64,000 bases of DNA from assembly GCA_041741375.1 (NCBI GenBank), contig JBGSKF010000143.1, positions 18,633 through 82,632 on the forward strand. Reading direction: 5' to 3'. Numbering within the stretch: position 1 is the first letter of the stretch; each line of letters starts with the position of its first letter. A program made the position numbers and the translations under genes. Below the pieces are notes generated by a model, which saw only the letters and a list, made by a program, of their open reading frames with translations, did no database searches and was not told the origin of the DNA. Of this stretch, positions 5,253 to 56,363 are shown piece by piece. This stretch comes from Gemmatimonadales bacterium (GTDB taxonomy: Bacteria; Gemmatimonadota; Gemmatimonadetes; Gemmatimonadales; GWC2-71-9).

Positions 5253-6926
5253 ATGCCCTCCCCCTCCTCCCCCTCGTCCGACCCATTCTCCCTCAACCGG
5301 CGCAGCTTCCTCAAGTCGGGTGTCGCCGCCGGGGCCCTCACCGCGTCAGGAGCGACACTCGGCGCGGCGTGCGCTCCCGCCGCCCCGCCCGTGGATCCGT
5401 CCCGGGCGGCGCCCCCCGCCTTTGCCCTCGACGAGATCACGGTCGATGAACTGCAACGCCGGATGGCGTCGGGGGCGCTCACGGCGGTCTCCATCACGGA
5501 GCAGTACCTGGGCCGGATCGCCGCGGTCAACCGAGAGGGACCGAACCTCCGCGCGGTGCTGGAAACCAATCCCGATGCCCTCGCGGAGGCGGCGCGGCTC
5601 GACCAGGAAAGGAAGGATGGCCAGGTCCGGGGGCCGCTGCACGGGATCCCGATCCTGATCAAGGGGAACATCGCCACCGCGGACCGGATGACCACCACCG
5701 CGGGATCGCTCGCGCTCGAAGGAGTGATCGCCCCCGCCGATGCCTTCCTCGTGTCCCGGCTGCGCGAAGCGGGCGCCATCCTGCTCGGCAAGTCCAACCT
5801 CAGCGAATGGGCCAACTTCCGGTCCACCCGAAGCAGCAGCGGTTGGAGCGGGATCGGGGGACAATGCCGCAACCCCTACGCGCTCGATCGAAACACGTCG
5901 GGATCGAGCTCCGGTTCCGGCGCGGCGGCGGCAGCCAACCTCGCCGCGATCACGATAGGCACCGAGACCGACGGATCGATCACCTCGCCCTCGGGGGTCT
6001 GCGGCGTGGTCGGAATCAAGCCCACCCTCGGGCTCGTGAGCCGAACCGGCATCATCCCCATCGCCCACAGCCAGGATACCGCCGGCCCCCTGGCGCGCAC
6101 CGTTCGGGACGCCGCCATCCTCCTGGGGGCCATGGTGGGAACCGATCCGGCGGATGCGATCACCGAGGCGGCGGCGAGCCGGGGAGTGACCGACTACACC
6201 CAGTTTCTGGACCCGACCGGGCTTCGGGGCGCCCGGATCGGCGTGGTCCGGAAGGAGTACTCCGGGTTTCACCCCCGGGCCGATCTGGTTTTCGAGAGCG
6301 CCCTGGAGGCCCTGAAGGCCGGCGGGGTGGAACTGGTCGACCCGGCCGACATTCCCACCGCCGGCCAGTTCGATGAAGCGGAATACGAAGTGCTCCTCTA
6401 CGAGTTCAAGGCCGATCTCGAGGCGTATTTCGCCTCGCTCGGTTCCTCCACCTCACTGCGGACGATGGCTGATCTCGTCGCCTTCAACGAGGCCAACGCC
6501 GAGCGGTCGATGCCCTGGTTTGGACAGGAGATCATCATCGCCGCGGCCGCCAAGGGGCCCCTCACCGATCCCGCCTATCGGACGGCGCTCGCGAACTCCA
6601 AGCGGCTCGCCGGGCGCGAAGGAATCGATGCGGTGATGGATCGCCACCGGCTCGACGCCCTCGTGGCGCCCACCAACGCTCCCGCCTGGCCGATCGATTT
6701 GATCAATGGAGATCACTACCTGGGCGGAAGCTCGTCTCCCGCGGCCGTGGCGGGATACCCCAACATCACGGTGCCCGCCGGCGCGGTGTTCGGCTTGCCT
6801 GTCGGCATCAGCTTCTTCGGCCGGGCTTTCAGCGAAGGGGTGTTGCTTCGGCTGGCCCACGCCTTCGAGCAGGCCACCACCCGGCGGCGGCAGCCGACCT
6901 TTCTGAGGACGGTGGATCTGGGGTAG
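5253..6926 (+). CDS. amidase (amidase-signature family) with Tat signal
   Basis: ORF 4980..6926 trimmed to ATG 5253. Twin-arginine signal NRRSFLKSGVAAGAL, plus the amidase signature region GSSSGSGAAAAANL...GTETDGSI. Confidence 0.85.
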   Translation: MPSPSSPSSDPFSLNRRSFLKSGVAAGALTASGATLGAACAPAAPPVDPSRAAPPAFALDEITVDELQRRMASGALTAVSITEQYLGRIAAVNREGPNLRAVLETNPDALAEAARLDQERKDGQVRGPLHGIPILIKGNIATADRMTTTAGSLALEGVIAPADAFLVSRLREAGAILLGKSNLSEWANFRSTRSSSGWSGIGGQCRNPYALDRNTSGSSSGSGAAAAANLAAITIGTETDGSITSPSGVCGVVGIKPTLGLVSRTGIIPIAHSQDTAGPLARTVRDAAILLGAMVGTDPADAITEAAASRGVTDYTQFLDPTGLRGARIGVVRKEYSGFHPRADLVFESALEALKAGGVELVDPADIPTAGQFDEAEYEVLLYEFKADLEAYFASLGSSTSLRTMADLVAFNEANAERSMPWFGQEIIIAAAAKGPLTDPAYRTALANSKRLAGREGIDAVMDRHRLDALVAPTNAPAWPIDLINGDHYLGGSSSPAAVAGYPNITVPAGAVFGLPVGISFFGRAFSEGVLLRLAHAFEQATTRRRQPTFLRTVDLG

Positions 6927-6982
6927 GGAGTAGGGAATAGGGAATTATAGGGAATAGGGAATAGGGAGTAGGGAGTAGGGAT
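6924..6982. repeat. TAGGGA(A/G) heptad tandem array (about 8 units)
   Basis: tagggagtagggaatagggaattatagggaatagggaatagggagtagggagtagggat. The first triplet is the amidase TAG stop. Confidence 0.9.
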
Positions 6983-9335: not shown

Positions 9336-9406
9336 TCATTGATCATTGATCATTGATCGTTGGTCATTGATCATTGATCATTGGTCATTGATCATTGATC
9401 ATTGAT
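9336..9406. repeat. TCATTGA heptad tandem array (about 10 units)
   Basis: tcattgatcattgatcattgatcgttggtcattgatcattgatcattggtcattgatcattgatcattga. Overlaps the last codons and stop of the HEAT gene. Confidence 0.9.
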
Positions 9407-15729: not shown

Positions 15730-15740
15730 GCGGTCTGTAG

Positions 15741-15805
15741 GGGCGCGGCGTGCCGCGCCCGGAATCGGGGTGTAGGGAATGGTACGGGCCGTTCGTGAAC
15801 GGCCC
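15741..15805 (+). terminator. two GC-rich hairpins downstream of the GAF gene (REP-like / terminator candidates)
   Basis: gggcgcggcgtgccgcgccc (15741-15760) and gggccgttcgtgaacggccc (15786-15805). No T-tract. Confidence 0.35.
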
Positions 15806-23298: not shown

Positions 23299-24531
23299 AT
23301 GACCAACTTGAAGGGCTCCCAAATGGGGAGTGGAGGCTGGGCCCAATACCCAATACCCAACACCCAGTACCCAATACGCAGTACCCGGTGGACGGGGTTG
23401 GGGGTGGTGCTCCTGGCCTTGGCTGCATGTACGGAACAGAAGGCTCCGCCGCCAGCCCTCTCGTCCGCCGATCTCGCGGAATGCTTTGCGGACGGGACCG
23501 AGGATCCCTGGCGCCCCGGCGCTGATGTGGAGTTGACCGGTACTCCCGCCGAATGGGCCCCGTTGTCTGCCGGAGGTCTGGTGGCCTTTGGAGAGGGGAT
23601 CATCGCCTACGACAGACACGCCGGCTCCGTGCATCTGATCCGGTCCCTCACCGAGCCCGCGGACTCTTTCGGGAGACTGGGGCAGGGGCCCGGCGAGTTT
23701 GCGTCGCCCGGAAACCGCGTCCTTTCGACCCCCGGGGTCGAGTGGATCGACCTGTTTCAGGACACCCTTGCCGTGCTCGATGGACGCGAGGTCCAGCTCT
23801 TCCGGACCGATGGCACCTTCCTCTCCCGGCTTCGAAGTTTCGACGACGCTGCAGGGCACATGCAGGTGTCGCGGAGGGTGCGCCGGGTACCCGGAGGGGT
23901 GGTGCTCGATCTCGAGCCCTGGGAGGGGAGGCGCGGTCCCGGGGGAGAGGTGCCACCGCGGCAATTCGATCTCTGGGCAATCCGGAACGACGCCGAGCGG
24001 CTCTGGTCCCTGTCACTCCCCGCCTTGCCGGTGTCACGCGACGGAGGAACCTATCACGGAGTCAACGAGGCGGATCCGCTGTGGGACCTCTCCGGACCCT
24101 GCTTCATCGTGAGCGACGGAGCGACGCCCCGCCTCTTCGTCGGGAGGATCGACCGGCGGGGTGTGGATACCATCCAGATCGAACTCCCGCCTGTCAGAAC
24201 CTCTCTCCCGCGGGACGATGAGAGTCGGGAAATGCTGCAACAACTCGGTGTGCGCGCAAGCACCCTTCCAGCACCGTCCGCTCGACGGAGGGTTCTGGAC
24301 ATGGTCATCGACCCCGCCGGCTGGGCGTGGATCCTCCCGGTTCAGGAGCGGTTGCCCGATGGGAGAGTGACCGTGGGCCGGATGGCGTTAAGAAGCGGGC
24401 ACACTCTGACCGACACGGTGCCGGTGTTTCCGAAGACATTCGGCGCTCCGGGGGTCCTCTGGGGATGGGCCGCGCCCGATTCGCTCGGCGATCAGCGTCT
24501 CGTCAGGGTGTCTCTTCGCCCGGCCAGGTAG
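23299..24531 (+). CDS. six-bladed beta-propeller family lipoprotein (paralog)
   Basis: ORF 23200..24531 from ATG 23299. Lipobox in ...GLGVVLLALAAC. Contains the GQGPGEFASPGN motif. Confidence 0.6.
   Translation: MTNLKGSQMGSGGWAQYPIPNTQYPIRSTRWTGLGVVLLALAACTEQKAPPPALSSADLAECFADGTEDPWRPGADVELTGTPAEWAPLSAGGLVAFGEGIIAYDRHAGSVHLIRSLTEPADSFGRLGQGPGEFASPGNRVLSTPGVEWIDLFQDTLAVLDGREVQLFRTDGTFLSRLRSFDDAAGHMQVSRRVRRVPGGVVLDLEPWEGRRGPGGEVPPRQFDLWAIRNDAERLWSLSLPALPVSRDGGTYHGVNEADPLWDLSGPCFIVSDGATPRLFVGRIDRRGVDTIQIELPPVRTSLPRDDESREMLQQLGVRASTLPAPSARRRVLDMVIDPAGWAWILPVQERLPDGRVTVGRMALRSGHTLTDTVPVFPKTFGAPGVLWGWAAPDSLGDQRLVRVSLRPAR
23342..23386. repeat. CCCAA(T/C)A heptad array within the N-terminal coding region
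   Basis: cccaatacccaatacccaacacccagtacccaatacgcagtaccc. Confidence 0.8.
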
Positions 24532-24585
24532 GCAGGATCACCGCATTCGTGGTGCGGCCCGGGCGAACTCATGAACAAGGAATCA

Positions 24586-24678
24586 ACCACAGAGACACAG
24601 AGAACACAGAGGTGCGTCAGGCAAGCCAGAACCCTTCGCCTGAGCCAACGCTCTCTGTGCCCTCTGTGTCTCCGTGGT
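24586..24678. repeat. MITE-like hairpin element, copy 1
   Basis: Arms accacagagacacagag and ctctgtgtctccgtggt (one mismatch) about 60 nt apart. Copy 2 lies near 25603-25690. This is the source of the HRDTENTE-type spurious ORFs. Confidence 0.6.
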
Positions 24679-24750
24679 GAACCCACTTACGGCGAGGGGT
24701 GTGGGGCTTCGTGCCTTCGTGGCTTCGTGTGAAGGATGTTGCCCCTACAC

Positions 24751-24840
24751 GCTGGGCGAATGTGATTCGCCCCTACCGCCCCTGGGCGAATGTGATTCGC
24801 CCCTACCGCCCCTGGGCGAATGTGATTCGCCCCTACACCG
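24751..24840. repeat. 30-bp tandem repeat x3, each with the hairpin gggcgaatgtgattcgccc
   Basis: Three contiguous units (g/c)ctgggcgaatgtgattcgcccctac(c/a)(g/c)c(c/g). The last unit contains the VapC stop codon. Confidence 0.9.
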
Positions 24841-25246
24841 GCATGATCACGGGTATCCGCTGCCGGCGGTTCCGGCGATAAATGGCGAAGTCTCGATCGA
24901 GGGTGACGACCACGCTGTCCCCGTCGAGTTCACTCATCCGGACCAGGCAGGCATCGGCGAGTGACATCGGCACCGAGGCGTACCGCGCCATCAGGGCGCG
25001 CAGGGCGGGAATCTCCGCGGACATCGAGAACACAGGCTCGATCACCCGGTGCTCGAGCAGGGCGAGCACGGCGTCCTGTCCACCCGGGAAGCGCCGCAGG
25101 AGAAAGCAGGTTTCCGACAGGACGGCCTCGCAGGTGCCGAGCGGCGGTTCGATGGTGTCGAACACCTCGCGCGCCCAGCGGTGATGCCGGTCGCGACGGT
25201 TCAGCAGCGCGACCAGAGGACCGGTGTCGACCAGGACATGGCTCAC
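24833..25246 (-). CDS. vapC: PIN-domain toxin (VapC-like), copy 1
   Basis: ORF 24833..25246. MSHVLVDTGPLVALL... with acidic residues in a PIN arrangement. 4-nt overlap with the antitoxin. Confidence 0.85.
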   Translation of the reverse strand: MSHVLVDTGPLVALLNRRDRHHRWAREVFDTIEPPLGTCEAVLSETCFLLRRFPGGQDAVLALLEHRVIEPVFSMSAEIPALRALMARYASVPMSLADACLVRMSELDGDSVVVTLDRDFAIYRRNRRQRIPVIMPV

Positions 25247-25482
25247 GTACCGTAGCCGGACAAGTGCCTGGGGTTGGTGGAGAGATCCTGGGGTCCCTCG
25301 ATGGTCTCGGCGACCTCATCCGTGATGGAGGTCACCGATCGGGCGGGGCAAGCAGTGAAGGCCACCAGAGCCTCGCGTACCAGGCTGGAGCGGCTGGTGT
25401 TCCTCTGCTGCGCCAGGTCGGTCAGCAGCTCGTCGAGCCCGGGAGGGAGCTTGAAGGAGACGGTGCGCATCGGTTTCGGCAT
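25243..25482 (-). CDS. ribbon-helix-helix (CopG-like) antitoxin, copy 1
   Basis: ORF 25243..25608 from ATG 25482. MPKPMRTVSFKLPPGLDELLTDLAQQRNTSRSSLVREAL. Confidence 0.8.
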   Translation of the reverse strand: MPKPMRTVSFKLPPGLDELLTDLAQQRNTSRSSLVREALVAFTACPARSVTSITDEVAETIEGPQDLSTNPRHLSGYGT

Positions 25483-25513
25483 GGTATTACCTTTCGTACA
25501 TAATCGTAATACC
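25483..25513 (-). promoter_or_regulatory. inverted repeat abutting the antitoxin start (candidate operator), copy 1
   Basis: ggtattac (25483-25490) and gtaatacc (25506-25513) with a 15-nt spacer. The arms are conserved in copy 2. Confidence 0.45.
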
Positions 25514-25759
25514 ACCAAGTGGACAGTCAAGACTCCTTCCCCACGTCTGTACCATCCTGCCCTCTGTACCTCTGCGGCGAACCCCCTCATGATGGACGAA
25601 TCAACCACAGAGACACAGAGAACACAGAGGGTACGTCAGGCAGGCCAGAGCCATCGCCTGCGCCAGTGCTCTCTGTGTCTCCGTGGTGGACCCACTTACG
25701 GCGAGGGGTGTGGGGCTTCGTGCCTTCGTGGCTTCGTGTGAAGGATGTTGCCCCTACAC

Positions 25760-25819
25760 GCTGGGCGAATGTGATTCGCCCCTACCGCCCCTGGGCGAAT
25801 GTGATTCGCCCCTACACCG
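25760..25819. repeat. 30-bp tandem repeat x2 (same unit as 24751)
   Basis: Two units. The last overlaps the VapC copy 2 stop. Confidence 0.9.
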
Positions 25820-26225
25820 GCATGATCACGGGTATCCGCTGCCGGCGGTTCCGGCGATAAATGGCGAAGTCCCGATCGAGGGTGACGACCACGCTGTCCC
25901 CCTCGAGTTCGCTCATCCGGACCAGGCAGGCATCGGCGAGCGACATCGGCACCGAGGCGTACCTCGCCATCAGGGTGCGCAGTTCGGGAATCTCGGCGGA
26001 CATCGAGAACGCCGGCTCGATCACCCGGTGCTCGAGCAGGGCGAGCACGGCATCCTGTCCGCCCGGGAACCGGCGGAGGAGGAAGCAGGCTTCCGACAGG
26101 ACGGCCTCGCAGGTGCCGAGCGGCGGTTCGATGGTGTCGAACACCTCGCGCGCCCACCGGTGATGCCGGTCCCGACGATTCAGCAGGGCGACCAGCGGAC
26201 CGGTGTCGACGAGGACATGGGTCAC
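25812..26225 (-). CDS. vapC: PIN-domain toxin (VapC-like), copy 2
   Basis: ORF 25812..26225. Differs from copy 1 at 6 of 137 residues. Confidence 0.85.
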   Translation of the reverse strand: MTHVLVDTGPLVALLNRRDRHHRWAREVFDTIEPPLGTCEAVLSEACFLLRRFPGGQDAVLALLEHRVIEPAFSMSAEIPELRTLMARYASVPMSLADACLVRMSELEGDSVVVTLDRDFAIYRRNRRQRIPVIMPV

Positions 26226-26461
26226 CTGCCGTAGCCGGACAGGTGCCTGGGGTGGATGGAGAGATCCGGGGGTCCCTCGATGGTCCCGGCGACCTGATCC
26301 GTGATGGAGGTTACCGATCGCGTGGGACGTGCGGTGAAGGCCACCAGAGCCTCGCGCACCAGACTGGAGCGGCTGGTGTTCCTCTGCTGCGCCAGTTCTG
26401 TCAGCAGCTCGTCGAGCCCGGGAGGGAGCTTGAAGGAGACGGTGCGCATTGGTTTCGGCAT
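26222..26461 (-). CDS. ribbon-helix-helix antitoxin, copy 2
   Basis: ORF 26222..26539 from ATG 26461. Differs from copy 1 at 9 of 79 residues. Confidence 0.8.
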   Translation of the reverse strand: MPKPMRTVSFKLPPGLDELLTELAQQRNTSRSSLVREALVAFTARPTRSVTSITDQVAGTIEGPPDLSIHPRHLSGYGR

Positions 26462-26492
26462 GGTATTACCTCTTGTACAAGAACGTAATACC
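26462..26492 (-). promoter_or_regulatory. inverted repeat abutting the antitoxin start (candidate operator), copy 2
   Basis: ggtattac (26462-26469) and gtaatacc (26485-26492). The spacer contains the palindrome cttgtacaag. Confidence 0.45.
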
Positions 26493-26559
26493 AACAAGCG
26501 GGCGGTCAACCCTTTCCCCCTGCCCCGACCCTCCCACACCTCGGGCGAATGTAATTCAC

Positions 26560-26625
26560 CCCTACACCCTACACACTACACCCCATTCCCTATTCCCTAC
26601 TCCCGACTCCCTACTTTCGCCCCTA
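26560..26625. repeat. CCCTAC-type degenerate heptad array
   Basis: cccctacaccctacacactacaccccattccctattccctactcccgactccctactttcgcccctac. The last unit gives the hydrolase TAG stop on the minus strand. Confidence 0.8.
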
Positions 26626-28007: not shown

Positions 28008-28706
28008 CTATCTTCGCCCAGCCCCCAGCCCCCAGCCCCCAGCCCCCAGCCCCCGCCGGACGGCCGCCTCCAATGGCCACTCCCACCCCGGCCGTTGGTT
28101 GTAGTCACGGAGCGATACTCCAAGTCCGCGAACCAGGTCGCGGAGGTGGGTGGCGGCGGTTAACGCTTCCTCGGCAAGAGCGTCGACGGTGGGACGGCAC
28201 CGTGGCAGGGTGGCCACCCGGTAAAGGCGGACCAGATCGCTGACCCGGCGGTGGAGCACCTTGGGCACGATCCGCTGGAGGTTGCGGAGGCTGAGACCCT
28301 CCGGAATCGGATGGGGTGAGGTGGTGACAGCCTCGCAGACGATGTCCTCCAGGATCGGGTTTCCAAGACGGGCGGCGAGCCATGCCCCCATTCGCTCTGG
28401 CGACAAGCGAGGCCGTGCGTTGACGGCGGCCACGATCTCAGCCGGGGAGATGGAGGTCCCGGTAGGAACCAGTGCCAGCTGTCGCTCGCGGAAGTCGAGT
28501 GGAGGGGAAAGAGGTTCAGGCCCATTTGCCGGGATGGCGGAAACGACAGGGACCATGAGAGGGAGGCTGGCGATTCCGTCGTGCAGGTAGGTCGTTGCAA
28601 TGCTGGAAGAGGGTGAGAGGATCCCGATCGTGCCGAGTGGATGATCGGCGACCGGCGCACCGACAGCAATGGTGTCGTAGGGTGGTGGCACATGATACGG
28701 TCTCAT
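28008..28706 (-). CDS. hypothetical protein (C-terminus encoded by the repeat array)
   Basis: ORF 28008..28706. No recognised domain. Ends ...RRGLGAGGWGLGAGRR inside the CCCCAGC array. Confidence 0.3.
   Translation of the reverse strand: MRPYHVPPPYDTIAVGAPVADHPLGTIGILSPSSSIATTYLHDGIASLPLMVPVVSAIPANGPEPLSPPLDFRERQLALVPTGTSISPAEIVAAVNARPRLSPERMGAWLAARLGNPILEDIVCEAVTTSPHPIPEGLSLRNLQRIVPKVLHRRVSDLVRLYRVATLPRCRPTVDALAEEALTAATHLRDLVRGLGVSLRDYNQRPGWEWPLEAAVRRGLGAGGWGLGAGRR
28017..28055. repeat. CCCCAGC heptad tandem array
   Basis: cccagcccccagcccccagcccccagcccccagccccc. Confidence 0.85.
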
Positions 28707-35034: not shown

Positions 35035-35135
35035 CCCCACTCCCCACTCCCTATAGCTCCCTATCGCATATTCCCTACCGCCTACTCCCTACCGCCTACT
35101 CCCTACCGCCTACTCCCTACCGCCTACCCCTACCC
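35035..35135. repeat. CCCTAC-type array including CTACTCCCTACCGC x4
   Basis: ...ttccctaccgcctactccctaccgcctactccctaccgcctactccctaccgcctacccctacccctca. Abuts the ADOP stop codon. Confidence 0.85.
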
Positions 35136-35136
35136 C

Positions 35137-37584
35137 TCACCCGCCCCGCATCACCATCGCCGGATCCACCCGCGCAGCACGCAGCGCCGGAAGCCAGCAC
35201 GCCACGAGCCCCACCGTCACCATTACCAGTGCTACGAGGATCAGTGTCACCGGATCGTGCGGGGCCACGCCGAACAGGAGACCGCGGATGATGCGGGTCG
35301 CGAACAGCGCCCCGGCGATCCCCAGCACCAGGCCGATGCCGAGCAGTGTGCCACCCTCGCGGATCACCATTCCCTGCACCCGGCTCTGGTCGGCGCCCAG
35401 GCTCATCCGGATCCCGATCTCCAGGGTCCGGGCGCTCACCGAGAATGCCAGCACCCCGGCGATGCCGACGGCGGCGATGAGCACCGCCAGGAGTCCGAAG
35501 GCGCCGATGAGGGCGGCGTTCAGGCGGCGGGGCGCCACGCTCTGGCCCTTGATCTCCGACAGGGTCAGCACGTTCTCGATCGGATCCCGGGGGGCGATGT
35601 TCCGCACCAGCCGGGTCGCAGCCGCTCCCAGAGCGGACGCATCCTGCTCGGAGCGGATCACCAGGCCGCCGGCGAACACCACCTCCTGGGCAAAGGGCTG
35701 GAACAGAACGGGGCGTGGCTCGACATCGAGTCCTCCGTCCCGCGTGTCGCCCACCACGCCAACCACCGTGCGCCAGTCGCCCGTCACCGGAATGAATCGC
35801 AGCACGTCCCCGGTCCACGCCACCCGCTGACCGATCGGGTCCCGGTCCCCGAAGAGCCGTTTGCTCAGCGTCTCGTTGAGGATCACCACCAGGGCGCTCC
35901 CCTCGATGTCGGTGGAGGTGAACTCCCGTCCCCGCAGCACCGGGATCCCGGCCGCCCGGAAATACTCGGGACTCGCCGTGCGATACTCGGCGCGCGGGAT
36001 CGCCTCGCCGACGGCCAGGGCCCGCCCTTCCGCCTTCAACTCGAGTTGGAAGTCCGAGGAGCGGAGGGGGATCACCGAACCGACTCCCACGTCGCGCACC
36101 CCGGGGATCGCGGCGATCTCGTACTTCATCCGGTCGTAGAGCGCCCTGGTGGCGTCGTTGTCTCCATCTCCGCCGCTGACCGGCACTTCCATCGTGAGGA
36201 CCTCGCTCTCGCCCCCGGTGAGACCGGTGTCCACCTCCGAGAGTCGGAGCATGGTGCGGGTCAGGAGGCCCGCTCCGGTCAGGAGGATCACGGAGACGGC
36301 GACCTGAGCCACGACAAGCGCGCGTTGGAGCCGTTGGCGGCGCAGGGTGCCGCTGGCGCGCGCCACGCCCTGGGCCATCCAGGTGCCGAGGGTTCCCTCC
36401 CGGGCGAGCCGCGGCGCGAAGGAGAGGAGGAGGGCCACGGCCACGGTCAGCACCAGGGTGAAGCCCAGGACCATGGCGTCGAGCCGGATTTCCCCGGCCC
36501 GGGGAGAAACCCGTTCCGCGAAGGCGATGAGGAGCTGCAACCCGCCCGCGGCCAGTACGAGACCCAGGACGGCGCCACCCAGGGCCAGCACCAGGTTCTC
36601 CACCAGAAGCAGGCGGCGGAGGCGGCCGGCCCCGGCCCCCAGCGCGGCCCGGATCACCAGTTCATGCTCGCGTCGCACCCCGCGCATCAGGGTCAGGTTG
36701 GCGACGTTGGCGGCGGAAATGATCATCACGAAGGCCGCGGCGCCCATCAGGAGCCAGAGGGTCAGGCGCGCGCGCTCGCCGAGCACCTCGTGGAAGGGAG
36801 TGAGGGTGACGCGGTATCCGGACGCGGCATCGTAGGCGTCGGGGTGATCGGCCTGGACCCGGGCGCGGATCGTCTCCACCTCGCTGCGGGCCTGGGGCAG
36901 CGTGGCGCCGGGAGCCAGGCGGGCGATCATCTCCGTCATCCGGTGGGTTCGGCCCGTCACCATCATGGCGCTGGTGTGGTGCTCGCTGATCACCATGTTC
37001 ATCAGCGCATCCATCCGGTTCGGGAAGGTGGGGGCAGGCTCCACCACGCCAACCACCGTCACCGCTCGTCCGTCCACCAGGATCGTCTGTCCGACGATCC
37101 CACTGTCCCCCTGGAACCGCTTCAACCAGTACTCGTGGGTCAGGACCATCACGGGAGGCACGGCGGTGCCGTCGTCTCCGTCGGTCAGCAGCCGGCCCAG
37201 GGCCGGAGCGAGGCCCATGACCTGGAAATAGTTTCCGGTGACGAGCCCGACGGTCATCCGGACCGCGTCGTTGTCCCCCTGGAGGGTGTAGGTCATGGGG
37301 GAGTACTCGGCGATCCCCCCAAGGGTACTGGCGCCTTCCCGGAAGTCGTCGATTTCGGGCACGGAGAAGAGCACGTTCTCTCCGCCCGGGCCTTCGACCG
37401 ACTGGCGGAGGTAGACCAGCCGGTCGCCGTCGCGATGGGGAAGGGGACGGAGGAGCACGCCGCGCACCACGCTGAAGATGGCGGTGTTGGCGCCGATGCC
37501 GAGCCCGAGCGTCAGGACCACGGTGAGGGTGAAGCCGTGGGCCTTGGCGAGGGAGCGCAGGGAGAAGCGGAGATCAGCGAGCAT
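35137..37584 (-). CDS. ADOP-family duplicated MacB/FtsX-like ABC permease
   Basis: ORF 35137..37584 (815 aa). MLADLRFSLRSLAKAHGFTLTVVLTLGLGIGANTAIFSVV..., two FtsX modules. Confidence 0.9.
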   Translation of the reverse strand: MLADLRFSLRSLAKAHGFTLTVVLTLGLGIGANTAIFSVVRGVLLRPLPHRDGDRLVYLRQSVEGPGGENVLFSVPEIDDFREGASTLGGIAEYSPMTYTLQGDNDAVRMTVGLVTGNYFQVMGLAPALGRLLTDGDDGTAVPPVMVLTHEYWLKRFQGDSGIVGQTILVDGRAVTVVGVVEPAPTFPNRMDALMNMVISEHHTSAMMVTGRTHRMTEMIARLAPGATLPQARSEVETIRARVQADHPDAYDAASGYRVTLTPFHEVLGERARLTLWLLMGAAAFVMIISAANVANLTLMRGVRREHELVIRAALGAGAGRLRRLLLVENLVLALGGAVLGLVLAAGGLQLLIAFAERVSPRAGEIRLDAMVLGFTLVLTVAVALLLSFAPRLAREGTLGTWMAQGVARASGTLRRQRLQRALVVAQVAVSVILLTGAGLLTRTMLRLSEVDTGLTGGESEVLTMEVPVSGGDGDNDATRALYDRMKYEIAAIPGVRDVGVGSVIPLRSSDFQLELKAEGRALAVGEAIPRAEYRTASPEYFRAAGIPVLRGREFTSTDIEGSALVVILNETLSKRLFGDRDPIGQRVAWTGDVLRFIPVTGDWRTVVGVVGDTRDGGLDVEPRPVLFQPFAQEVVFAGGLVIRSEQDASALGAAATRLVRNIAPRDPIENVLTLSEIKGQSVAPRRLNAALIGAFGLLAVLIAAVGIAGVLAFSVSARTLEIGIRMSLGADQSRVQGMVIREGGTLLGIGLVLGIAGALFATRIIRGLLFGVAPHDPVTLILVALVMVTVGLVACWLPALRAARVDPAMVMRGG

Positions 37585-56242: not shown

Positions 56243-56292
56243 TAGGACATAGGACGTAGGACATAGGACGTAGGACATAGGACATGGGACAT
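56243..56292. repeat. TAGGAC(A/G) heptad tandem array
   Basis: taggacataggacgtaggacataggacgtaggacataggacatgggaca. Confidence 0.85.
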
Positions 56293-56304
56293 TGTCCCAA
56301 ACAC

Positions 56305-56363
56305 CCCACTCCCTACTCCCGATTCCCTACTCCCTACTCCCGATTCCCCACTCCCCACTCCCT
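56305..56363. repeat. CCCTACT-type heptad array
   Basis: ccccactccctactcccgattccctactccctactcccgattccccactccccactccc. Confidence 0.85.

Follow-up and report, generated by a model that had tools for sequence, protein, structure and literature searches.

A tandem pair of vapBC operons

Two toxin–antitoxin (TA) modules stand head to tail in the 64-kb stretch of DNA analysed here (the window), and they raise the question of whether the two cognate pairs have been diverging so as to become insulated from each other, as the first-pass annotation had proposed, and, if not, what has shaped the differences between them. The locus is flanked by a conserved hypothetical gene on one side and by a gene for a hydrolase of the proline-iminopeptidase family on the other, and both vapBC operons are intact. 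Going by the source names of the nearest homologues that carry one, the genome is probably a member of Gemmatimonadota. On the minus strand, each unit runs from a promoter with a putative inverted-repeat operator through a ribbon-helix-helix (RHH) antitoxin gene and a PIN toxin gene to 30-bp repeats, a CTTCGTG-rich spacer and a hairpin of about 100 nt. The four genes are:

24833–25246, minus strand: T1, PIN-domain (VapC-type) toxin of 137 aa with a GTG start (Pfam PIN, 4e-13)
25243–25482, minus strand: A1, RHH antitoxin of 79 aa (Pfam RHH_1 at 25.6 bits, cut-off 20.5; family alignment)
25812–26225, minus strand: T2, PIN-domain toxin of 137 aa (Pfam PIN, 1e-12)
26222–26461, minus strand: A2, RHH antitoxin of 79 aa (Pfam RHH_1 at 29.0 bits, cut-off 20.5)

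In both units the small DNA-binding antitoxin gene lies immediately upstream of the toxin gene and is translationally coupled to it, the antitoxin stop and the toxin start sharing 4 bp (GTGA); by their PIN ribonuclease toxin and coupled upstream RHH antitoxin, both units are predicted to function as type II vapBC modules. T1 and T2 match Pfam PF01850 at 50.4 and 49.2 bits (cut-off 23.6), and the RHH_1 matches of A1 and A2 both exceed the gathering score; the match of the toxin to TIGR00028 (the NCBIfam VapC subfamily) falls below the cut-off. T1 and T2 both have the five conserved acidic residues: in an alignment of 78 toxin family sequences, D7 and D98 never vary, and conservation of E45, D117 and D119 is 90% or higher. 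The nearest solved structure to the toxin, although distant (E=2.4e-4), is VapC26 (5x3t), a Glu of which aligns with E45.

As in VapBC systems with RHH antitoxins, such as VapBC26 of M. tuberculosis (PDB 5x3t), an upstream RHH antitoxin gene overlaps the downstream PIN toxin gene, the active site keeps its acidic residues, a putative operator with inverted repeats lies over the promoter, and the C-terminus of the antitoxin is more variable than its DNA-binding N-terminus. The present modules differ from the solved VapBC in being only their distant kin and in forming a tandem operon pair with an elaborate, repeated 3′ tail. N. gonorrhoeae FitAB is another module of this RHH-antitoxin/PIN-toxin kind. 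By analogy with the solved VapBC and FitAB complexes, the C-terminal tail of the antitoxin would block the PIN active site.

Predicted promoters and operators

25483–25530, minus strand: promoter and operator 1, with -35 TTGACT (25530–25525) and -10 TACGAT (25508–25503), from a promoter scan
26462–26509, minus strand: promoter and operator 2, with a putative -10 TACGTT (26487–26482) and -35 TTGACC (26509–26504), from homology with unit 1

Promoter 2 was not reported by the scan because its -10 fits only three of the six consensus positions. The inverted-repeat arms GGTATTAC and GTAATACC are the same in both units (25483–25490 and 25506–25513 in unit 1; 26462–26469 and 26485–26492 in unit 2), and the 15-nt spacers between them carry five differences, in agreement with the initial description of conserved arms around a different spacer. 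The unit-1 inverted repeat, GGTATTAC-N15-GTAATACC (25483–25513), covers the -10, which overlaps the left operator arm, and the ribosome-binding site, and it abuts the ATG. Relatives retain the arms, and distant homologues, too, have the half-site GTAATACC upstream. As in the solved VapBC and FitAB complexes, an antitoxin dimer would bind the GGTATTAC-N15-GTAATACC operator via its N-terminal beta-strand. Judged from sequence, each antitoxin probably represses both promoters, since the operators have the same arms and the N-terminal halves of the antitoxins scarcely differ; that the RHH halves differ by D22E only argues, together with the identical arms, for a shared rather than an insulated transcriptional control.

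The repeated 3′ tail

24583–24686, minus strand: hairpin 1, at the distal end of the unit-1 3′ tail, folding at -64.1 kcal/mol
24687–24751, minus strand: spacer 1, with CTTCGTG three times (CACGAAG on the mRNA strand), from alignment
24752–24836, minus strand: array 1, three GTAG-tagged REP-like units with a 30-bp period, the proximal one giving the T1 stop TAG
25601–25695, minus strand: hairpin 2, folding at -57.0 kcal/mol
25696–25760, minus strand: spacer 2, 100% identical to spacer 1 in the alignment
25761–25815, minus strand: array 2, two GTAG-tagged REP-like units, the proximal one giving the T2 stop codon
26543–26565, minus strand: a solo REP-like unit, GTAGGGGTGAATTACATTCGCCC, 5′ of the A2 promoter, from sequence

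The 30-bp unit, present three times in unit 1 and twice in unit 2 as had been noted at the outset, is identical in every copy, with none expected by chance. On the minus strand it reads GTAG followed by GGGCGAAT-CAC-ATTCGCCC, and the vapC stop codon lies within the GTAG head of the proximal unit. By definition, a GTAG-tagged REP lies downstream of an ORF and has a short perfect palindrome preceded by an unpaired GTAG tag (PMC3733652); the 30-bp units have this structure, tag, perfect palindrome and position included. Like known GTAG-tagged REPs (PMC3733652, PMC2817692), they combine an unpaired GTAG head with a palindrome of 8-bp stem and follow a coding region directly, on the strand that is transcribed; unlike them, they are arranged in direct tandem with a 30-bp period and not as inverted dimers (BIME/REPIN). 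Seven REP-like units are found in the 64 kb, all at the vapBC locus (six within 2 mismatches and one loop variant), in addition to one different GTAG palindrome at 15737. The REP hairpins, beginning at the stop codon, would probably stabilise or terminate the mRNA; a terminator scan found no intrinsic terminator.

The arms of hairpin 1, about 26 bp long, are made of CACAGAG/CTCTGTG octamer repeats, and hairpin 2 is 7.4% diverged from hairpin 1: the two are separated by 7 substitutions and by 11 gap columns, a 9-bp deletion among them. Against Rfam, the hairpins gave sub-threshold, miRNA-like matches only, as expected of generic hairpins, and a literature search with the octamer sequences returned nothing relevant. 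Octamer-arm hairpins are widespread, and the motif class of the CTTCGTG spacer is common across metagenomes. The label ‘MITE-like’, first attached to the hairpin, is not established: we found no terminal inverted repeats beyond the hairpin arms or at the ends of the inserted segment, and neither the rest of the 64-kb window nor the fetched loci contain another copy.

Reality and age of the duplication

In a pairwise alignment of 24560–25600 with 25577–26600, the two units are 92% identical (mean column identity) with a repeat period of about 1018 bp, so that the tandem duplication of units of about 1 kb, as originally described, is upheld. Homology extends from about 24562–24568 (25580–25586 in the second unit) to about 25545 (26510); its start is about 20 nt further left than the first-pass annotation had placed it. 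Between the units, homology to the left flank stops at GTTCGCC (about 25576) and homology to the region upstream of A2 restarts at about 25542, within the following feature:

25531–25600, unstranded: duplication junction, from hairpin 2 to the copy-1 promoter, with an orthologous junction in L142 and L143

A search of genome contigs yielded relatives at 61% identity or less only, and closer ones were reached through cluster members 92–95% identical. Two of these metagenome contigs, L142 (JGI 3300032024) and L143 (Logan SRR8512251), contain the hairpin end, the junction, a copy-1-type promoter (TTGACTGT...TGTACGAAAGG), the antitoxin gene and the toxin gene. Others show the surroundings of one copy: L139, L140, L141 and L002 have the copy-2 arrangement (hydrolase, antitoxin, toxin), and L001, like L142, has that of copy 1 (toxin, REP, left-flank gene). 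L140 and L142 share a sample, the sole ground on which we infer that they represent one genome.

Could the tandem have been created by assembly, two strain haplotypes of a single-copy locus having been joined? The source seems to be a metagenome-assembled contig and the contigs of relatives often end within the vapBC locus, as such an artefact would lead one to expect; however, the identical junction occurs in two independent assemblies from other samples, and the copies are 7% diverged with distinct promoters. Moreover, a k-mer mis-join is unlikely because the junction is a unique sequence sharing at most a 7-bp motif, which is too short. Both window copies are found on one 91,167-bp NCBI contig. 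We regard the artefact as largely refuted and its probability as extremely small. Since L142 and L143 are independent contigs from related populations and share the same junction, the duplication predates their split.

The module may have been duplicated when REP-like units on either side of it recombined unequally, one of them possibly the solo unit that lies 5′ of the A2 promoter. A clean REP-arm microhomology at the join was considered and rejected: TTCGCC, found at the window break, is not conserved at the junctions of L142 or L143, and the REP-mediated origin is therefore weakly supported.

Probable gene conversion between the copies

Identical tracts break up copies that are otherwise 6–9% diverged, and the one in the window is:

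24681–24892, unstranded: putative gene-conversion tract, 100% identical to 25690–25871 bar one 30-bp unit

This tract covers the hairpin end, the spacer, the REP array and the final 60 nt of vapC. The window copies differ by 69 substitutions over 936 columns, and their longest identical run extends across 182 ungapped columns (permutation P=3e-5); L142 and L141 share one of 264 bp, a length reached in 0 of 20,000 permutations. The two runs indicate gene conversion. Between L142 and L141, dS is 0.076 for the toxin and 0.33 for the antitoxin. Moreover, the toxins group by lineage and not by copy position, as judged from distance tables and counts of informative splits: nine informative sites in the toxin join W1 and W2, the window copies, against none for a complete split by position that would set every copy-1 sequence apart from every copy-2 sequence, and the quartet counts are 11:0:0. 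The antitoxin tree is star-like and uninformative, and the segment comprising the antitoxin and the promoter is the least homogenised part in both lineages.

The copies would thus undergo intermittent gene conversion, that is, concerted evolution. As in other bacterial duplicates evolving in concert (reviewed in PMC3924818), long identical tracts occur in diverged paralogues, and paralogues cluster by genome despite a duplication that predates the split of the lineages; here, by comparison with the general case, the duplicate is a TA operon and the tracts lie over the 3′ end and tail in the window and in mid-toxin in the relative. Conversion has replaced the sequence in parts of the units, so that the divergence between the copies is no clean post-duplication clock.

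The identical 3′ tract might instead reflect a recent independent insertion, or an inter-strain transfer, of a mobile cassette formed by REP, spacer and hairpin. The site in L001 is empty, with a single REP unit but neither spacer nor hairpin. Relative to L001, a possible 7-bp direct repeat, GGGCGAA, flanks the insertion; since this repeat belongs to the REP unit, it is ambiguous as a target-site duplication. In L002 the element is 98.9% identical to that of unit 1 over 176 bp, next to coding DNA about 8% diverged, the identity falling exactly at the stop codon, and RAYT transposases have been proposed to mobilise GTAG REPs (PMC3733652). The hairpin of L002 is also nearer to hairpin 1 of the window than hairpin 2 is, a closeness that also fits mobility of the 3′ element or recombination between lineages, as against simple intragenomic conversion. 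However, the last 60 nt of vapC, in which one would expect about 3.6 differences, are also identical between the window copies, and the hairpins show 7.4% divergence and indels. We also found no terminal inverted repeats on the element, and neither the window nor the 120 metagenome loci fetched contain another copy of it, apart from the generic octamer motif. A mobile cassette thus appears quite improbable, and we retain gene conversion as the probable origin of the tract.

Divergence, selection and the question of insulation

The residue counts from which insulation had been proposed are exact: T1 and T2 differ at 6 of 137 residues (95.6% identity) and A1 and A2 at 9 of 79 (88.6% identity), eight of the nine within residues 41–79. 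On that proposal, the C-terminal, toxin-binding regions of the antitoxins have diverged adaptively and A1/T1 and A2/T2 are becoming insulated. The concentration of changes in the C-terminal half (Fisher p=0.014) would agree with it, as would the antitoxin dN of the window pair (0.054), which, like its dN/dS, is at the top of all comparisons. However, the window copies give a dN/dS of 0.11 in the toxin gene and 0.27 in the antitoxin gene, with dS about 0.19–0.20 for both genes, and the C-terminal half of the antitoxin gives 0.38; all three ratios are well below 1, those of all ten pairwise comparisons lie between 0.08 and 0.27, and both operons are under purifying selection. For adaptive divergence at the antitoxin interface we looked for a dN/dS above 1 or a significant acceleration, and found neither in the window pair.

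The faster divergence of the antitoxin holds numerically, mostly in its C-terminal half, but its excess over the toxin is not significant (9/79 versus 6/137; Fisher p=0.09) and is the norm in the family, because distant homologous pairs show the same asymmetry (56–61% identity for the toxin and 38–47% for the antitoxin). The changed antitoxin positions are enriched at columns that vary in the family (Mann–Whitney p=0.02), in which the C-terminal half is in general more variable than the N-terminal half (mean entropy 1.14 versus 0.84). Likewise, in a sister lineage with the same duplication the antitoxins differ at four residues (D22E, R45H, A47S and V54T; dN/dS 0.09), three of them at positions 22, 45 and 47, which are variable in the window pair too. 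Together with the identical operator arms and the nearly identical RHH halves, these results leave the insulation of cognate pairs with no test in its favour.

Some changes do fall at conserved or nearly conserved sites: position 69 of A2 is I, against T in 17 of 17 family sequences; position 46 of T1, adjoining the catalytic E45, is T, against A in 72 of 76; and position 79 of A1 is T, against K or R in 14 of 17. These three make some functional divergence possible. Moreover, in other TA families a few antitoxin residues suffice to switch specificity, as in the reprogramming of ParDE (PMC7669267, PMC10160972). As in paralogous TA pairs whose insulation or cross-talk has been investigated, namely those of ParDE (PMC7669267, PMC10160972), M. 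tuberculosis VapBC with its cross-reactivity (PMC7472061) and S. aureus YefM-YoeB (PMC8717551), the presence of two related pairs in one genome poses the question of cognate specificity, and their differences gather in the toxin-binding part of the antitoxin; the copies described here are far closer to each other, adjacent, partly homogenised and sharing operator arms. A partial insulation of the two pairs at the protein level is possible. The antitoxin and promoter segment, moreover, has stayed unhomogenised in two lineages, as insulation would have it, although homogenisation of the toxin would counter the co-evolution of toxin–antitoxin pairs. Taken as a whole, adaptive insulation seems unlikely.

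The low homogenisation of the antitoxin and promoter could reflect selection against conversion of that segment. A bolder version, to which we give only a slim chance, is that the antitoxin and promoter are actively kept distinct, homogenising conversions being selected against, while nothing restrains homogenisation of the toxin and 3′ tail and the octamer-arm hairpins and stop-codon REPs tune the toxin:antitoxin ratio; if true, the locus would catch a tandem TA pair in nature at the onset of insulation, brought about via the antitoxin alone. The explanation that we consider likely, and the best overall, is that the tandem duplication, of a chromosomal type II vapBC operon and its non-coding 3′ tail, is genuine and fairly old and that its copies undergo intermittent gene conversion. 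With conversion intermittent, the divergence between the copies would therefore be a mosaic of conversion history and purifying selection and not a signature of adaptive insulation.

The locus is thus a routine vapBC duplicate, an ordinary case that changes no current view. Tandem TA paralogues that are still similar are a convenient natural system in which to ask how much change ends cross-talk; comparisons of such paralogues must, however, account for gene conversion first, as an apparently fast-evolving antitoxin can come from uneven homogenisation and ordinary constraint.

Organisation of the tandem units

When its two halves are aligned (window 24560-25600 against 25577-26600), the locus repeats every 1018 bp or so, at 92% mean column identity; homology between the units starts near 24562-24568/25580-25586 and dies out near 25545/26510, some 50 nt before each antitoxin promoter. 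On the minus strand, each unit runs from a promoter with an inverted repeat through a 79-aa ORF, a 137-aa ORF, a 30-bp array and a spacer to a hairpin:

25243-25482, minus: A1, 79-aa ORF (antitoxin, unit 1), Pfam RHH_1 above gathering score
24833-25246, minus: T1, 137-aa ORF (toxin, unit 1), Pfam PIN above gathering score
26222-26461, minus: A2, 79-aa ORF (antitoxin, unit 2), Pfam RHH_1 above gathering score
25812-26225, minus: T2, 137-aa ORF (toxin, unit 2), Pfam PIN above gathering score
Minus: 30-bp repeat array; unit 1 has three identical repeats and unit 2 has two
Each unit: 65-nt spacer with three CTTCGTG
Each unit, distal end: hairpin of roughly 100 nt
26543-26565: solo REP-like unit upstream of the A2 promoter

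Antitoxin and toxin ORFs overlap by GTGA in both units, and the nearest solved structure for the toxin is M. tuberculosis VapC26. Direct reading and alignment bear out the tandem duplication of about 1 kb, with 3 and 2 array units, described in the first-pass annotation, whose residue counts are exact (toxins differing at 6/137 positions, antitoxins at 9/79, with 8 of these 9 in residues 41-79).

On the mRNA strand the 30-bp repeat joins a GTAG head to the palindrome GGGCGAAT-CAC-ATTCGCCC, the same layout as in GTAG-tagged REP elements (PMC3733652). The vapC stop TAG lies within the tag (24833-24836 and 25812-25815), an arrangement kept in all close relatives (contigs L001, L002 and L141-L143) but absent from distant homologues, and the hairpin stem of the first REP-like unit begins directly past this stop. 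By analogy with E. coli REPs that lie near stop codons, the stop-embedded unit might reduce translation of the toxin or make its mRNA more stable. A different GTAG-tagged palindrome, GTAGGGGCGCGGC-GTG-CCGCGCCC, at 15737-15760 (plus strand) may indicate more than one REP-like type in this genome. Tandem arrays of 7-bp units (CCCTACT, TAGGGAA, TCATTGA, CCCAATA, CCCAGCC, TAGGACA) also occupy many apparently intergenic stretches (6924-6981, 9336-9406, 23342-23386, 26560-26615, 28017-28054, 35035-35142 and 56243-56363); several have GTAGGG in common with the REP head, and some adjoin REP-like units.

The hairpins fold at -64 (unit 1) and -57 (unit 2) kcal/mol, and neither matches an Rfam family above threshold. 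Relatives are polymorphic for the presence or absence of the spacer-hairpin segment: downstream of vapC, L001 has one REP unit only, without spacer or hairpin (520-570), and what L142 carries after copy 1 is a decayed version (876-1040). That of L002 is 98.9% identical to the segment of window unit 1, the adjoining coding DNA being about 8% diverged. Halfway through its hairpin L002 turns into unrelated sequence (1206-1248), through chimerism or a different arrangement. This lineage may be polymorphic in copy number and tail structure, and the variation leaves room for mobility of the 3' tail or inter-strain exchange. The label 'MITE-like', applied earlier to the hairpin, is not established, because the tail lacks terminal inverted repeats and the 64-kb window holds no further copy of it.

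Arrays of the octamer CTTCGTG-N (CACGAAG-N), present in the window at 24583-24751 and 25601-25760, are spread over at least 120 metagenome contigs (L019-L138) from many environments; they often form long hairpins, whose tails include GGTTCA and GGTGAA. At least 48 of at least 154 arrays have an inverted partner within 200 nt, and CACAGAG-type arms are found alongside the arrays (e.g. L019, L027, L051, L131). The arrays match no Rfam family and a literature search by sequence gave no paper; they may represent a very widespread kind of intergenic hairpin that has yet to be described.

Reality, age and origin of the duplication

Proteins 92-95% identical to T1, together with the 90% cluster of A2, led to short contigs of relatives from other samples. 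L142 (JGI 3300032024) and L143 (Logan SRR8512251) both begin within a CACAGAG-arm hairpin and continue into a junction that aligns with window 25514-25600, followed by a copy-1-type promoter (TTGACTGT ... TGTACGAAAGG), the antitoxin and the toxin. As the tandem junction is present in at least two other independent assemblies, the duplication is no assembly artefact, a possibility raised at first pass, and is older than the split of these lineages. L139, L140, L141 and L002 represent the opposite end, running from a proline-iminopeptidase-family hydrolase gene through REP-like units and a copy-2-type promoter to antitoxin and toxin, while in L001 and L142 the toxin is followed by a homologue of the window's left-flank gene. 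Several of these contigs end within the TA module, as expected for short-read assemblers at repeats. Breaks within the module or hairpins (ends of L139, L140 and L141, starts of L001 and L142, both ends of L143), including that of L140 exactly where the toxin tract that is nearly identical in the two copies of its lineage starts, are consistent with repeat-induced assembly breaks.

At the junction, left-flank homology stops at GTTCGCC (about 25576) and homology with the A2-upstream region resumes some 33 nt further on. Upstream of A2 the corresponding sequence is ATTCGCC, which forms the right arm of the solo REP-like unit; relatives carry several REP-like units at the matching place. The tandem duplication could stem from unequal recombination between REP-like units on either side of the module; REP-mediated duplications have been reported in enterobacteria. 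We give this origin low weight, because neither L142 nor L143 retains a TTCGCC-type motif at its junction.

RHH-PIN pairs that are nearly identical to one another, upstream regions included, are found in MAGs labelled Candidatus Latescibacterota and Gemmatimonadetes (L003-L009, L015), which points to horizontal transfer or to errors of binning or labelling.

Mosaic divergence of the copies

Divergence between the units is very uneven along their length:

Divergence between the two units, by segment
Region upstream of the promoter: 21%
Antitoxin: 8.5%
Toxin: 6.0%
Hairpin: 7.4%, with indels in addition
Spacer and REP array, with the final 60 nt of vapC: 0%

The 0% tract (24681-24892 against 25690-25871) spans 182 ungapped columns (permutation P=3e-5). 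For the relatives, L142 provided copy 1 and L141 copy 2 (matching L139, L140 and L002 within 0-1 differences). Here the antitoxins show 22/236 differences (dS 0.33) and the 5' half of the toxin 1/204, with a 264-bp identical run that was reached in 0/20,000 permutations. Toxin sequences group by lineage, not position: nine informative sites unite the two window copies, none supports a full positional split, and the first toxin quartet gives split counts of 11:0:0. For the antitoxins, the distances form a star-like pattern and the splits conflict. These patterns are most simply read as intermittent gene conversion between the copies, its tracts placed differently in each lineage, so that divergence of the copies would be no clean post-duplication clock.

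Selection and regulation

The first-pass annotation had read the faster divergence of the antitoxin as fitting post-duplication insulation of cognate pairs, and proposed dN/dS per gene as a check:

Nei-Gojobori estimates between the window copies
Toxin: dS 0.19, dN 0.022, dN/dS 0.11
Antitoxin: dS 0.20, dN 0.054, dN/dS 0.27
Antitoxin C-half: dS 0.26, dN 0.10, dN/dS 0.38

All are far under 1, and dN/dS is 0.08-0.27 across all ten pairwise comparisons of window and relative copies. Amino-acid changes are not significantly more frequent in the antitoxin than in the toxin (Fisher p=0.09); the contrast between antitoxin C- and N-halves is nominally significant (Fisher p=0.014). This latter contrast is the usual behaviour of the antitoxin family, for which a 20-sequence alignment gives mean column entropies of 1.14 (C-half) and 0.84 (N-half). 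The nine changed positions fall preferentially at variable columns (Mann-Whitney p=0.02). In distant homologous operons toxins are 56-61% identical to T1, antitoxins only 38-47% to A1. Three departures from the family at conserved or mostly conserved positions, I69 of A2 (T in 17/17), T46 of T1, next to catalytic E45 (A in 72/76), and T79 of A1 (K/R in 14/17), do not add up to a signal.

The predicted unit 1 promoter is sigma-70-like (-35 TTGACT, 16 nt, -10 TACGAT); at matching positions, TTGACC and TACGTT stand in unit 2 and in the relatives. An inverted repeat, GGTATTAC-N15-GTAATACC, covers the -10 and the ribosome-binding site and abuts the ATG. Its arms are identical in both units, as first noted, and essentially kept in relatives, and the half-site GTAATACC recurs upstream of distant homologues. 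Moreover, D22E is the sole difference between the RHH half of A1 and that of A2. Most likely, judging from these sequences, each antitoxin represses both promoters, which would argue for shared and against insulated transcriptional control.

Neither rates, family baseline, sister lineage nor regulatory sequences support insulation, although, because few residues can suffice to switch TA specificity (PMC7669267, PMC10160972), it keeps a low probability. The locus is an ordinary vapBC operon in tandem duplicate, real, common to relatives and fairly old, of which both copies are kept under purifying selection and, on the simplest reading, have been partly homogenised by gene conversion.
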